From the sequence record MW584153.1: a stretch of 64,000 nucleotides of DNA; one strand, written 5' to 3'. The translations under genes and the position numbers were made by a program. How positions within the stretch are numbered: position 1 is the stretch's first letter; every line of letters begins with the position of its first letter. Origin of the DNA: Mycobacterium phage prophi79-1. The notes under the pieces are model-generated. The model did no database searches, was not told the DNA's origin, and saw only the letters and a list, made by a program, of their open reading frames with translations. Below are positions 16,280 to 58,975 of the stretch, piece after piece.

Positions 16280-16363
16280 GTCTCGGTCCTTTCCGATTGG
16301 GCGGGTTTCGTCCCTGCCTCTGTCTCAATAATACCTATGGTTGTCGGTATTGAACCTGGTTTA

Positions 16364-16504
16364 GGAGATCAATGCCAGGAACGGAACGGCCACCGCTGAC
16401 CCTAGGGTGACCACGCCAAAGAACGCTGAGAGTGTCCTGTTTTCGGGGCAGCACACCAGGCCAATGAGACCGAGTATGAACACCCCGACGCAGGTCATCA
16501 TGCC
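16364..16504 (-). CDS. small 2-TM membrane protein (46 aa), holin-like
   Basis: Not in the track (<60 aa). High GC3 and ATGA overlap with the upstream gene. Sequence MMTCVGVFILGLIGLVCCPENRTLSAFFGVVTLGSAVAVPFLALIS. Confidence 0.35.
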
Positions 16505-16650
16505 GCATCGGCGCGCACGTCGACGAGCGCGTAGGGGATAGGCGCGTCGGGGTCGCGCAGGGACTCAGCCCATGCGATATGTCGCTGAGCTTCAATGAAT
16601 CTGGTGGTCTTTCGATGCCGATACCAGGTGGTCAATGCTTCGATCATCGG
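16501..16650 (-). CDS. small hypothetical protein (49 aa)
   Basis: ATGA overlaps on both sides, moderate GC3. Confidence 0.3.
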
Positions 16651-16763
16651 TCTGCCACCAGGTCGGCGGAGATATGATTCGGGTTCGGCTCAACCGGTCC
16701 GTAGTAGGGCTCGGGTTCGATGTAGTCCTCGTCGCTCGGTGCGTACGAGAGATAGCTGATCAT
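16647..16763 (-). CDS. small acidic hypothetical protein (38 aa)
   Basis: High GC3 frame. Conserved leader motif and AGGAA SD upstream. The overlapping track ORF 16690..16899 is in the wrong frame. Confidence 0.3.
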
Positions 16764-17031
16764 AGGTCCGTTCCTGTTCTGGCGGGTTCATCCCTGCCTC
16801 GTGGAAATGTTGGACGCCGGGGCCGTCGGGCCCCGGCGGGTACATCCCCTTGTTCCGCGCTGTAACCGCCGACGCGGCGCTGCAGCTGCGCGGAGACATC
16901 TATTAGCTGATCGCCCCCTCGGGGTGGCTCGTCCCTTGGTGTGGCATACGTGGTTCCTTCCACTCGTGAGCGGGTTTCTTCCCTGCCCTCTCCTCTAATG
17001 ATACTACCTATAACAATGGGTAGAGTCAATT

Positions 17032-18273
17032 GTGAAATGGCGTGCACGGCCGATGCCTACCGTCTGCGCTGTGCCACGGTTTCTCCCGCTCAAGGCGGGT
17101 TCGTTCCGGTGGGGTTCGGGATTCGGACCTCGCTCAGGGACAGCGCATCTCGGACAGGACTTCGAGGCCGTTGACGGCACTCCGATCTACGCCGCGCAAG
17201 GTGGTGATGTCGCCTACATAGGCGCGGCTGTCGGATTCGGGCAGTGGATCGTCCTTGACCACCCGGCCGTCGAGGGCGCGGGCACCACGGTGTACGGCCA
17301 CATGTGGAATGCCTTCGCAACGGGCCTCAAACAGGGCGACCGGGTGAGCGCGGGCCAGCTGATCGGCTATGTCGGCGCGAACGGCCAAGCAACTGGCCCG
17401 CATCTGCATTTCGAGGTCCACCCAACGATGTGGCGGGCCGGTTCCCAGATCGACCCCCGGCCATGGCTTGCCGGTGCACTCAATCCAGGAGGAAACGTGG
17501 GCGTCTCAGGCGATCCCATCTGGCTCGAAGATGTTCTCCGTCCGGCGCTCGGCGACCGGCTGCGCACTCTGCCCGGCTGGAAGACCGACGGCGTCGGCGG
17601 CACCATGGGCACGATCTGGGGTGTCATCTGGCACCACACCGGAAACGCTGCTGAGAAGCCAGAATCCATCAGCAAGGGGCGCCCAGACCTCCCGGGCCCG
17701 CTGGCGCAGATCCACATCGCACCGGACGGAATCGTCACGATAGTCGCGGTCGGACCGTGCAACCATGCCGGCCGTGGCTCGTGGCCGGGACTGCCCACCG
17801 ACAACGCCAACGCGTACACGATTGGTATCGAGTGCGCCTATCCGCGTGACACTTCGCTGACGGAGGAGACGATCACGCGCGAGCCGTGGCCTGCCGCACA
17901 AATCATCTCGATGCGTGACGTCGGTGCGGCGCTGACCAAACACCTACAAGTCCCGGTATCTCACAACATCTCGCATGCGCAGTGGGCGCGATTCGGGCCT
18001 GCTGGCGTGCGCCAATACAAATGGGACCCCGGCAATCTCGACATGGACTGGTTCCGGGGCGAGATCCAGAAGGACATCGACGGCTATCAGTTCCCCGGGG
18101 AGACGCCGCCAACCACACTGCCCACCTCACCCGACTACCCGCGGGAGATTTGGGATCAGCTGCGTATCGAGTGGCCGCAGCTCGGTGGTCGCACGCTCGT
18201 CAACGCGGTCGCAGTCATCGGAAAGCAGCTGGGCATCAACGGTTTCGCCCCGATCGGAAAGGACGCCTCATGA
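17032..18273 (+). CDS. lysA: endolysin, lysin A (M23 peptidase + N-acetylmuramoyl-L-alanine amidase domains)
   Basis: GQDFEAVDGTPIYAAQGGDV...GPHLHFEVH is an M23 motif. The C-terminal half (IWHHTGN...TIGIECAYP) is amidase_2/PGRP-like. GTG start. Confidence 0.85.
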   Translation: MKWRARPMPTVCAVPRFLPLKAGSFRWGSGFGPRSGTAHLGQDFEAVDGTPIYAAQGGDVAYIGAAVGFGQWIVLDHPAVEGAGTTVYGHMWNAFATGLKQGDRVSAGQLIGYVGANGQATGPHLHFEVHPTMWRAGSQIDPRPWLAGALNPGGNVGVSGDPIWLEDVLRPALGDRLRTLPGWKTDGVGGTMGTIWGVIWHHTGNAAEKPESISKGRPDLPGPLAQIHIAPDGIVTIVAVGPCNHAGRGSWPGLPTDNANAYTIGIECAYPRDTSLTEETITREPWPAAQIISMRDVGAALTKHLQVPVSHNISHAQWARFGPAGVRQYKWDPGNLDMDWFRGEIQKDIDGYQFPGETPPTTLPTSPDYPREIWDQLRIEWPQLGGRTLVNAVAVIGKQLGINGFAPIGKDAS

Positions 18274-57509: not shown

Positions 57510-57818
57510 ATGACGAAGTTAAAGCTAATCGCCGTTTCAGTTGTATTTGCAGCCGCAAGTTCAACTTTCGTTGCGCACGCTCATGCTGATTCGGTCAACT
57601 GGGACGCCATCGCCGCCTGCGAGAGCGGTGGGAACTGGGCCATCAACACCGGCAACGGGTTCTACGGTGGGCTCCAGTTCACTCTGGGGACATGGCGAGC
57701 CAACGGCGGATCCGGGATGCCACATCACGCTTCGCGCGCCGAGCAGATTCGCGTCGCGGAGAATGTGCTGCGGTCCCAGGGCATCGGCGCGTGGCCGGTG
57801 TGCGGGCGTCGTGGGTGA
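57510..57818 (+). CDS. secreted Rpf-like (resuscitation-promoting-factor-type) lytic transglycosylase domain protein
   Basis: Signal peptide [26 protein letters not shown], then [37 protein letters not shown]...GAWPVCG. The upstream 42 aa of the track ORF overlaps the terminase and is Arg-rich. Confidence 0.7.
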
Positions 57819-57881
57819 CCACGATTATGCGCTTGTCTGGATGAATGAGCGTTTCGACCAACAAGGCCAACTCATAGCGGT

Positions 57882-58376
57882 TCATGCCCCGATCGCCTTC
57901 GGCTCGTAGTCGGGGAGAAGCGCCGGCATCCGATTCGTCTCATATGCCTCCGCGACCCATGGCACTATCTCGGCACCGACGGTCTGGCCGTTAGGCAGGA
58001 CCAACTGCGCAAGGAACTCGGAGTCGAACGTCGAGATACCTGACTCCACTGCCTCCAACTTGGCCTTGATCACGAGATTCAGTGCGCGCCAGCGCTGCCG
58101 GACAGCCTGCTCGTACGCCTCTTCTCGTTGCGCAGGAGTGCGTGGGCGAGGTGGTTTGTGGGCGCTCATCGTGAACTCGGGGCTGTTCCTATCGGGCATG
58201 GTGAGCATGAACCGGATCTGACGGTCTCGGACCACGAATCCGACGATGGCCGAGGCCGGGTCGCCCGAGTCCCATCCGTACATGAACTGAGAGGCACCCC
58301 AGCGCGTCAAGGTGCGCTCGATTTCGGCACGAGATTTCTCGGAGCTGACGCTTGTGTTTTCGGCGTAGGTGCCCAT
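57882..58376 (-). CDS. hypothetical protein
   Basis: Start MGTYAEN, TGATG-type overlap with the RuvC stop. Confidence 0.5.
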   Translation of the reverse strand: MGTYAENTSVSSEKSRAEIERTLTRWGASQFMYGWDSGDPASAIVGFVVRDRQIRFMLTMPDRNSPEFTMSAHKPPRPRTPAQREEAYEQAVRQRWRALNLVIKAKLEAVESGISTFDSEFLAQLVLPNGQTVGAEIVPWVAEAYETNRMPALLPDYEPKAIGA

Positions 58377-58936
58377 CAGGCGGCCATCCTCTCGATCCAA
58401 TTGCCCTTGCTCTTACCCGATTTCGAGATGTAGTGATCCGATGTCACTGAGTCGATCGGATGTCCAAGCACGCGGCATCCGATGGCGGCCAGCACCATGG
58501 CGTCGGCAATGTTGTTGTCGACGATGTCCACCTGCGGCCAGCGCCGGATCGACGCGGCGAGCACGACGTCCTTACCGGCATTCCCCGCCCCGGTCGCGTA
58601 CTGCGCGCGTTGGTTGGGCGTCGGGGTGATTATCGGTATGCGGCGGTCCATGCACGCGTCGAAGATCTTGCCCCACAGCCAGCTTCGGTCGTGGTTGTGT
58701 CCGCCGACCTTGGCAAGGGCCGGGGCCTCCAGAACGATCAGCGAAGGCAGCATCTCGAGCTCGGCCACGATCGGAGCCATGATGGTCTTGATTCTGTAGC
58801 TCGTATAGGCGTGGCTGCCGTCTTTTGGCTTAGTCGTCGTCAGATGGGTTTTCGCAGTCCAGCCGGTGTCTTTCCAGTCGACCCGGACGAGTCCAGTTCC
58901 AGTGAGGGAGCTATCGATTCCAATGACTCTGACCAT
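58376..58936 (-). CDS. RuvC-like Holliday junction resolvase
   Basis: MVRVIGIDSSLTGTGL...LIVLEAP RuvC-fold acidic residues. 186 aa. Confidence 0.7.
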   Translation of the reverse strand: MVRVIGIDSSLTGTGLVRVDWKDTGWTAKTHLTTTKPKDGSHAYTSYRIKTIMAPIVAELEMLPSLIVLEAPALAKVGGHNHDRSWLWGKIFDACMDRRIPIITPTPNQRAQYATGAGNAGKDVVLAASIRRWPQVDIVDNNIADAMVLAAIGCRVLGHPIDSVTSDHYISKSGKSKGNWIERMAA

Positions 58937-58944
58937 GCGCTGAT

Positions 58945-58975
58945 ACTACCACACCTTATAGGTAGTATGTGGTAG
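58945..58975. promoter_or_regulatory. operator palindrome (ACTACCacaccttatAGGTAGT, extended CTACCACA...TGTGGTAG) between divergent genes
   Basis: Same half-site. Confidence 0.5.

Follow-up and report, generated by a model that had tools for sequence, protein, structure and literature searches.

We found that Mycobacterium phage prophi79-1 carries a repeated cassette of promoter, palindrome and twin-hairpin leader. The window analyzed here is the whole 64,000-nucleotide stretch of sequence record MW584153.1, and the cassette consists of a 22-bp palindrome set in the spacer of a promoter, followed by a leader with two small hairpins, H1 and H2, the second of which lies next to the start codon. 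The repeats, their positions, their conservation and the covariation of their base pairs are direct observations. With moderate confidence, we read them as a two-layer gene-expression cassette, acting at the level of both DNA and RNA, that this temperate Mycobacteroides abscessus phage reuses. An earlier note on the same DNA had described at least nine recurrences of such an element, and all the copies that it listed were found in place. A motif search of the kind that it had proposed showed both motifs to be enriched over chance, with the leader unit confined to the gene strand and tied to starts.

With at most three mismatches, the palindrome ACTACCTA-N6-TAGGTAGT was found eight times in the window, against 0.02 expected, and the combined -35/palindrome/-10 pattern TTGACNNTACC-N10-GGTANTAT gave 11 matches at nine loci, against 0.06 expected. 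A weight matrix of the half-site identified nine sites of at least 16 bits (0.34 in shuffles), all of which have exactly six bases between the half-sites and not the five to nine that the earlier note had allowed; a tenth operator (O2) was added through comparison with relatives. On the gene strand the promoter consensus is TTGAC(A/T)-CTACCyA-N6-TAGGTAGTAT, i.e. a -35 hexamer TTGACA, a 17-bp spacer and a -10 hexamer TAGTAT, TATTGT or TAATGT, and a generic sigma-70 scan independently recovered three of the promoters, with 17-bp spacers. As the left half-site of the dyad begins with the last base of the -35 and the right half-site extends to the fourth -10 base, a bound protein would cover the whole spacer. 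Nearly all copies head leftward transcription units, as the earlier note correctly had it: seven sites face leftward operons and two (55692 and 58945) are situated between divergent genes. At the latter two, the leftward genes are predicted to be leaderless, since the endonuclease gene (55685) begins 4 nt past its -10 and the -10 TAGTAT of the RuvC-like resolvase gene lies 6 nt ahead of ATG 58936.

When orthologous sites were aligned, the proportion of variable columns was 6-9% in the half-site cores, 20% in the palindrome center and 25% in the upstream flank. Three more distant relatives (the contigs L187, L185 and L197) keep TACC-N10-GGTA with different centers. In O2 the same bases are kept in most relatives, and the ten central bases are almost freely replaced. 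The only perfect palindrome in the window is the one at 36965-36986, ahead of gene 36820.

The symmetry could in principle come from divergent transcription and require no dimeric protein, if each palindrome consisted of two back-to-back -10 elements (GGTAGTAT-like halves) serving as bidirectional, -35-independent promoters. A TAnnnT hexamer does occur on both strands of every palindrome, mycobacterial promoters are generally known to often need a -10 only, and the two sites between divergent genes, with their leaderless-like leftward genes, are what such an arrangement would produce. Seven sites, however, have a gene on one side only and a good TTGACA there, the conserved bases reach past the hexamer (ACC/GGT) at a spacing fixed at six, and O2 keeps its TACC-N10-GGTA with no gene to serve on the other strand. 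We consider this explanation decidedly unlikely and retain that of a protein-bound dyad.

In the leaders, the motif GGCAGGGANGAAACCCGCC was found five times with at most three mismatches (0.12 expected), and the core 12-mer GGGANNRAACCC 13 times when H1 and H2 copies are counted together (0.25 expected), always on the minus (gene) strand. The earlier note had seen a leader motif followed by a Shine-Dalgarno (SD) sequence; both are present, but they turned out to belong to two copies of one hairpin unit and not to be separate elements. These copies are spaced 19-22 nt (about 21) and share the fold GG-[A-N-N-R-A-A]-CC. All 11 leaders, including one that the earlier note had overlooked (M6, 32060-32095), fold as two hairpins with a GG/CC core and an A-N-N-R-A-A loop. 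H1 occurs in ten of them, with M9 having a different hairpin instead, and has 5-7 bp and often a bulged A, e.g. GGC-A-GGG...CCCGCC. H2 is smaller, with 3-5 bp; it contains the SD purines or adjoins them, and 0-5 nt separate it from the start codon.

None of the 19 paralogous units lacks the third base pair, which is GC in 13, CG in three, AU in two and UA in one, and the fourth is likewise drawn from four pair types. The covariation score was 0.383 compared with 0.074 in shuffles, and not one of 500 shuffles reached it. Substitutions between orthologs are located in loop positions 2-4, in single-stranded parts and linkers or in the outermost pair, or they change G-C to G-U, while the inner three pairs and loop positions 1, 5 and 6 show none. 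Taken together, the covariation and the substitution pattern fit selection on an RNA hairpin and not on a duplex DNA site, and with its RNA-type covariation and G-U pairs the leader may well be the translation or RNA-stability element that the earlier note had supposed.

If the 12-mers acted as DNA sites instead, a phage transcription factor would bind them downstream of the promoter as direct repeats separated by two helical turns. The strong conservation of the cores agrees with this, as does the spacing of about 21 bp, which puts both copies on one helix face. A DNA-binding protein would nevertheless conserve bases and not complementarity, whereas the positions flanking the core covary for pairing with four pair types, G-U pairs are found where DNA would be mismatched, and all copies have a single orientation tied to start codons, all of which makes the DNA-site explanation highly improbable.

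A different division of labor between the hairpins was also considered. H1 begins 9-14 nt past the -10 hexamer which, by the usual 5-9 nt rule, would put it 2-8 nt downstream of the transcription start. It could thus act on the transcript, either as a 5'-terminal stem-loop against 5'-end-dependent RNases or as an antitermination hairpin of the nut/boxB kind, with H2 being a strong ribosome-binding site. Besides its position, the GC-rich stem and purine-rich loop of H1 would suit these roles, H1-type hairpins are found directly after promoters in unrelated contigs, and L185 retains H1-like hairpins without H2. On the other hand, four of the 11 modules have no recognizable promoter of the palindrome class and are located inside operons, where H1 still precedes H2 and the start codon by about 21 nt, and core and loop type are common to H1 and H2 in this genome. 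For antitermination, no boxA-like partner was noticed, though no search for boxA was made. We find it unlikely that H1 and H2 work separately in this manner.

According to the two-layer reading that we prefer, the DNA layer would be a host SigA-type promoter (TTGACA, 17 bp, TAGTAT-like) with the 22-bp dyad in its spacer. A phage DNA-binding protein, dimeric or with two domains, would occupy the dyad and keep RNA polymerase away. In this way about ten promoters, serving essentially all leftward operons (replication, accessory, toxin, resolvase and endonuclease), would be switched together as early or accessory units. In the RNA layer, the transcript would start 2-8 nt before H1, with H2 about 21 nt downstream at the SD and start codon, and the pair would have a cis effect on translation initiation and/or 5'-end stability. 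The twin hairpin is probably a bipartite site for a trans-acting factor or the 30S subunit, and it would work inside operons too, because four of its 11 copies have no promoter of the palindrome class.

Several known types of element were compared with the hairpins and discarded. Rfam gave no match at gathering score in the whole window, and the two leader regions searched at E<=1 only irrelevant sub-threshold matches. The antisense of the unit resembles a tRNA T arm, but ARAGORN found no tRNA and the antisense loop has 6 nt, not 7. Intrinsic terminators do not account for the hairpins, as neither H1 nor H2 is followed by a T run on the gene strand; the sole flag was the antisense of the H1 at 23250-23265. 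Promoters for extracytoplasmic function (ECF) sigma factors combine a GGAAC-type -35 with a CGT-type -10 at a distance of 16-17 bp, and by inspection no CGT-type -10 was seen 16-17 bp downstream of either unit, which discards such a reading of GGAAC/TGAACC.

By searching 2.9 million contigs in IMG/VR, we found the tandem pattern in six and the promoter pattern in four, i.e. in seven contigs altogether, all of which are relatives of the window (27.8-76 kb, about 70-98% nucleotide identity). The palindrome alone, with its 14 specified bases, was too unspecific in IMG/VR to be informative. All 47 tandem-pattern matches in GTDB were 21-bp coding or simple tandem repeats and unrelated, a BLAST search of two whole cassettes against GenBank phages gave no meaningful match, and PolA-based retrieval yielded close relatives only. 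Half-sites and hairpins are kept in eight related contigs (about 70-98% nucleotide identity), while palindrome centers, flanks and even downstream genes change. L187, a metagenomic relative (~80% nucleotide identity), has kept every module with altered palindrome centers, and L197 with its other stretches, whose proteins are 44-83% identical to those of the window, has at least three modules with H1 GGCAGGG-loop-CCCGCC. L185 (~70%) has kept the operator type and has no H2; its leader hairpins are GGGG-AUAGG-CCCC, GGUGG-AUAGG-CCACC or GGCAGGG-ACAGU-CCCCGCC. Such a genome-wide change of loop type suggests a co-evolving partner, although a different host would explain it equally well.

Among the relatives, the same cassette is also found with both its upstream sequence and its downstream gene replaced. 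This raises the question of whether history alone could be responsible. Recombination at module junctions would then have spread a promoter/ribosome-binding unit in which selection maintains no more than an ordinary promoter and a strong Shine-Dalgarno sequence; in keeping with this, the cassette marks mosaic junctions and stands ahead of different genes in different relatives. The copies within the genome nevertheless vary in centers, loop positions 2-4 and linkers, with half-sites, stems and loop positions 1, 5 and 6 kept, and the conservation reaches relatives with ~44% protein identity. The CC(C) arm and the loop, moreover, have no pairing partner in the 16S 3' end, which is what Pope et al. 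argued for the start-associated sequences (SAS) of Cluster K mycobacteriophages (PMC3203893). An explanation by history only is hardly credible to us.

A 19-base pattern of H1 and SD also matched several unrelated uncultivated phage lineages, in which the hairpin is situated 8-12 nt past the -10 and about 20 nt ahead of the ATG. In one of these lineages (nine contigs, namely L208, L210, L217 and six metagenome loci, e.g. L331 and L339), a different palindrome, ACTATTAATAATAGT, is present upstream of the -35 as well as within the promoter spacer. Next come GGCAGGGAAACAACCCGCC, an SD and an open reading frame (ORF) of 59 codons, of which there are at least three unrelated versions; the arrangement resembles a constant leader that precedes a hypervariable first gene. 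Contig L276 contains two modules with an H2 identical to GGAAGGAACC of the window. The remaining matches of this metagenome scan were mostly due to chance, as in a RecA coding sequence, with a minority in leader-like context, and the distribution beyond the phage group is suggestive only.

The closest known counterpart is found in Cluster K. Its SAS, GGGATAGGAGCCC, occurs 3-7 nt ahead of the mostly ATG starts of non-structural genes, extends past the possible pairing with 16S rRNA and was described as being of unknown function (PMC3203893). The extended form (ESAS) was later interpreted as a promoter of SigA type containing an inverted repeat that may bind a repressor; the regulator was described as unknown and probably distinct from the immunity repressor, and RNA-seq lends partial support to the ESAS promoters (PMC11373665). 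The earlier note had called the present element SAS/ESAS-like with a consensus that looked distinct, and both parts were borne out by direct comparison with the sites that we extracted from the Cluster K phage Adephagia, TTGACATGCATACAG-N8-TTACTGTATGCAT...GGGATAGGAGCCC-N3-ATG. The layout is the same, i.e. SigA-like -35 and -10 hexamers 17-18 bp apart, an imperfect inverted repeat that starts from the -35 and overlaps the -10, a short leader and an asymmetric GGG...CCC 0-7 nt ahead of a mostly ATG start. Also shared are the single orientation, the restriction to non-structural genes, gaps of >50 nt and the occurrence of the same motif ahead of unrelated genes, and the numbers per genome (about 7 extended and 11-19 plain copies) are similar to those of the window. 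Positionally, the window copies behave as SAS do, with H2 0-5 nt from the start, all copies on one strand, a preceding gap of at least 68 nt for all module-bearing genes and an ATG start in nine out of ten of these, and the ESAS architecture (~46 bp, SigA-like hexamers, inverted repeat, SAS next) is found at seven sites with a different sequence.

The sequences are ATGCATACAG-N8-CTGTATGCAT with GGGATAGGAGCCC in Cluster K, as opposed to ACTACCTA-N6-TAGGTAGT with GGGANNRAACCC in the window. None of the window units matches the SAS consensus GGGATAGGAGCCC with two or fewer deviations, and the palindrome and leader motif are absent from Adephagia as well as from the M. abscessus prophage prophiGD43A-5. 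The Adephagia sites have no second hairpin 21 nt upstream, and in the ESAS repeats Pope et al. saw nothing to support RNA pairing (PMC3203893), whereas the window hairpins covary. Host and phage lineage differ as well, only three short protein matches being found between the window and the right arm of Adephagia. We regard the cassette as a new sequence and structure variant of the SAS/ESAS signals, the novelties being the duplicated start-associated unit and its RNA-type covariation. Two resemblances to Cluster K were noted in L185, which carries GGGGATAGGCCCC about 20 nt further upstream, a mere resemblance to the SAS. At ~5440-5525, in the promoter ahead of its phrog_2355 homolog, it has TTGACAATGCATACTCTGATAGGTATTCT, whose left half ATGCATAC resembles the ESAS half-site and whose right half is of the window type; this may be a coincidence or a hybrid operator.

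In Microbacterium phages of Cluster EF, a 13-bp SAS, GGGAAAGGACCCC, occupies the position of the ribosome-binding site, with a weakly conserved upstream element centered on GTAGAG that is possibly a -10 (PMC7302621). Its form is nearly that of some H2 copies, e.g. CGG-AAAGGA-CCG at 16283-16296, but the host genus is different and, in this comparison by published description, neither palindrome nor upstream hairpin is described. Possibly, and we put this forward tentatively, GG-loop-CC hairpins are a widespread, unannotated class of cis-regulatory RNA in early leaders of actinobacteriophages, in which the SAS of Cluster K, of Cluster EF and of this phage are RNA operators for a dedicated factor gating translation initiation. 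The H1 stem GGCAGGG/CCCGCC with its bulged A would then be the most conserved recognition feature, and the loop change from A-N-N-R-A-A to AUAGG in L185 would reflect co-evolution with the factor.

Other systems are more remote. The Cluster A stoperators (L5 gp71 sites) also place many copies of one repressor site across a temperate mycobacteriophage genome. They are asymmetric sequences of 13-14 bp, mostly within or between genes, and are thought to block elongation, whereas the window site is a symmetric 22-bp dyad at intergenic promoter positions only and does not belong to this class. Pope et al. likewise contrasted stoperators with SAS (PMC3203893). As leads only, the coat protein operators of MS2 and PP7 are comparable in being small hairpins, often with a bulged A, at or beside the SD or start codon, and CsrA in its two-site geometry with one site on the SD, like a bridging dimer. 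The window loops are nevertheless A-N-N-R-A-A and not GGA, and CsrA is not known from Actinobacteria. No homologous protein was found. Lambda nut (boxB) and HK022 put share purine-rich-loop hairpins in the first nucleotides of early transcripts, but the window hairpins are coupled to start codons, also inside operons, and have a hexaloop, not a GNRA-like pentaloop.

Certain points weigh against the two-layer reading. The paralogous copies behind the covariation may share ancestry, and the hairpins are short, with single-leader fold z-scores of only -1.1 to -3.1. An ATG is found between H1 and H2 in M4 and M5, where H2 may be coding; at M5 it probably is, since the differences in the helicase gene among relatives are mostly synonymous, which places the start of translation upstream of H2. 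From the sequence we infer promoter activity, repression, the translational or RNA function and the identity of both partners, and for the operator-binding regulator there are candidates only. One of these is a protein with two helix-turn-helix (HTH) domains (33054-33434), whose L187 counterpart (51% identity) has a different second recognition helix although the operator there is the same. In known M. abscessus prophages, toxin-type cassettes are believed to be active in the lysogen, and the presence of such cassettes behind two promoters makes a poor fit to a simple immunity-repressor model with everything off in the lysogen. As to the ATG itself, M4 (23228-23246) and M5 (25197-25212) share CCGCCGAAATGGG, through which an in-frame ATG falls between H1 and H2.

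The earlier note had looked for the regulator among the HTH and AP2 proteins at 33-35.8 kb. The two-HTH protein is plausible, its gene being the first behind a promoter with two operators (P7 and O2), but the AP2-domain protein (33908-34468) is unlikely, as it is an HNH-type endonuclease by PHROGs. Homologs of the two-HTH protein in other isolate phage genomes come without the cassette, so this protein was rejected as a cassette marker. Another candidate, the 163-aa protein 36329-36820, is encoded behind the only perfect palindrome and has homologs solely in Mycobacteroides abscessus assemblies, on contigs of up to 1.2 Mb; its family is limited to this phage group, which contributed to our taking the window for a temperate M. 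abscessus phage. It gave no sequence match in PDB, and its structure model was unusable (pLDDT, the predicted local distance difference test score, 47.7). The pair of ribbon-helix-helix (RHH) and HTH proteins at 34970-35772 is encoded on the opposite strand. Its member at 35173-35772 matches phrog_645, labeled 'Rnase E' (E = 9e-51), but has an N-terminal HTH only; with no Pfam, NCBIfam or PDB support for a nuclease, this label was rejected as probably inherited annotation, and by eye the protein looks more like an HTH/small-terminase-type protein. The DUF3310 protein 28725-29081 has a match in the C-terminal portion of gp51 of Adephagia, a protein for which an action on SAS genes was speculated (PMC11373665). 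As the domain occurs in 783 phage records from many hosts, it is not specific, and this link was discarded.

Table 1. Promoter/operator sites (P, O) and twin-hairpin leader modules (M) in the window.
Feature	Position	Strand	Description
P1	16328..16356	-	Palindrome 16330-16351 (AATACCGACAACCATAGGTATT on gene strand); -10 TATTAT; -35 weak
P3	17001..17029	-	TTGACT-17-TAGTAT; palindrome 17003-17024
P5	25307..25335	-	TTGACA-17-CAGTAT; palindrome 25309-25330; then ~85-nt leader
P7	33484..33512	-	TTGACT-17-TAATGT; palindrome 33486-33507 (TACCCAT/ATGGGTA)
O2, auxiliary operator	33564..33585	-	78 bp upstream of 33486-33507 operator; weak score in window
P9	36963..36991	-	ATGACA-17-TAGTGT; perfect palindrome 36965-36986, top score 27.5 bits
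P10	43473..43501	-	TTGACA-17-TAGTAT; palindrome 43475-43496
P11	50784..50812	-	TTGACA-17-TATTGT; palindrome 50786-50807
Divergent site	55687..55718	.	Palindrome 55692-55713; starts 55685 (-) and 55751 (+, terminase); GGTAGTAT on both strands; conserved in L185
Divergent site	58940..58971	.	Palindrome 58945-58966; starts 58936 (-, RuvC-like resolvase) and 58986 (+)
Weak palindrome-like site	15255..15276	-	11.9 bits; upstream of GTG 15222; status uncertain
M1	16283..16318	-	H1 16300-16318 (GGCAGGG-ACGAAA-CCCGCC); H2 16283-16296 (UCGG-AAAGGA-CCGA)
M1 gene	ATG 16279	-	190 aa, phrog_636
M2	16764..16798	-	H1 16781-16798 (5-nt loop AUGAA); H2 16764-16775; ATG 16763; without palindromic promoter
M3	16950..16988	-	H1 16968-16988 (has G-U pair); H2 16950-16963 (GUGG-AAGGAA-CCAC); ATG 16947
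M4	23232..23265	-	H1 23250-23265 (GGCGG-ACUGAA-CCGCC); H2 23232-23245; ATG 23228 (or 23246); without promoter
M5	25182..25219	-	Ahead of DNA helicase gene; H1 25201-25219; H2 25182-25195; start ATG 25212 or 25197
M6	32060..32095	-	H1 32080-32095 (GUCGG-ACUGAA-CCGAC); H2 32060-32071; ATG 32059 (DUF7457 protein)
M7	33435..33472	-	H1 33454-33472; H2 33435-33448 (AAGG-AACGAA-CCUU); ATG 33434 (two-HTH protein, phrog_664)
M8	36214..36249	-	H1 36234-36249 (CGGGG-AUUGAA-CCCCG); H2 36214-36227; ATG 36213; without promoter
M9	36821..36860	-	Different upstream hairpin 36845-36860 (UCACC-AAGA-GGUGA); H2 36821-36832 (GGG-AUUGAA-CCC); ATG 36820 (163-aa protein)
M10	43422..43460	-	H1 43442-43460; H2 43422-43438 (7-nt loop); TTG start 43423 (phrog_6105)
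M11	50733..50769	-	H1 50751-50769 (GGUUGGG-AUUGAA-CCCACC; U-A replaces C-G); H2 50733-50744; ATG 50732 (phrog_2355)

Some of the sites listed in Table 1 have further features in their surroundings. P3 and M3 are followed by only a 14-codon ORF (16947-16903) and then by a GC-rich hairpin (~16808-16835), which precedes the M2 leader and a 39-codon ORF; the region 16808-16947 looks like a leader-peptide or attenuator arrangement. Directly upstream of the helicase promoter P5, there is an A+T-rich stretch at 25345-25400 (TATATAAACTTTGTTAAG...TATTTAAATACAATTGAATT) that could be a UP-like element or part of a replication origin. A small hairpin, GCCGAT-ATCCC-ATCGGC, is found within 33516-33550, directly upstream of the -35 of P7, with a compensatory change in relative E (GUCGA...UCGAC), and may be an insulator or a terminator for the upstream gene. 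Seven related sequences show hardly any variation in the ~130-nt leader (36833-36958) that separates the P9 palindrome from gene 36820. A single operator half-site (36860-36867) and what may be a 12-codon ORF lie in this leader, whose folding is not unusual (z = -0.88).

The divergent region 34470-34660, between the HNH/AP2 gene and the rightward RHH/HTH genes, has a separate motif cluster of repeated TTGACATGAT and TGACA/TGTCA elements and no TACC-N10-GGTA palindrome. An extended -10, TGATATGTT, is located there only 7 nt ahead of ATG 34468, which suggests that this gene is leaderless. A strong terminator-like hairpin on the minus strand (35784-35812; a 12-bp stem with ten G-C pairs and a T tract) sits between the convergent genes 35173-35772 (+) and 35832-35924 (-).

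The window as a whole has a G+C content of 62.6% and a siphovirus-type gene set, namely tape measure, lysin A, terminase, portal, DNA polymerase, primase/polymerase and helicase. The terminase is only 60-63% identical to that of the nearest known phages. At the DNA level the window had no counterpart in the GenBank phage collection searched, where matches of the 16-24 kb stretch were confined to lysin A. A tyrosine integrase is encoded on the minus strand at 62933-63961, directly after the portal and head-assembly genes, an unusual placement. Since the window starts with the tape-measure gene and has the integrase behind portal and head assembly, the genes for the head and the tail shaft lie outside it. 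The toxin-like protein 39658-41124, whose gene belongs to the operon headed by M10, is 82% identical to proteins of the M. abscessus prophages prophiT46-2 and prophiGD43A-5, and an EspA-like TPR protein is encoded at 44749-46950. Together these resemble the polymorphic-toxin/ESX-type cassettes of other M. abscessus prophages, and palindrome promoters stand ahead of both genes.

Although SAS and ESAS have been in the literature since 2011, no mechanism has been given for them, and the present phage group is a cleaner test case. Its duplicated, covarying start unit is the first sequence-level evidence we found for action as an RNA hairpin, and it tells which compensatory mutants to make, while the compact 22-bp dyad at about ten promoters suits a hunt for the regulator. 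The cassette could also become a portable, co-regulated expression part for mycobacterial genetics. The host M. abscessus is clinically relevant, and prophage toxin and ESX-related cassettes, two of which lie behind these promoters, bear on virulence and phage therapy. Lastly, as hairpins of the H1 type also turn up in uncultivated phage contigs unrelated to the window, the family may extend beyond this phage group.

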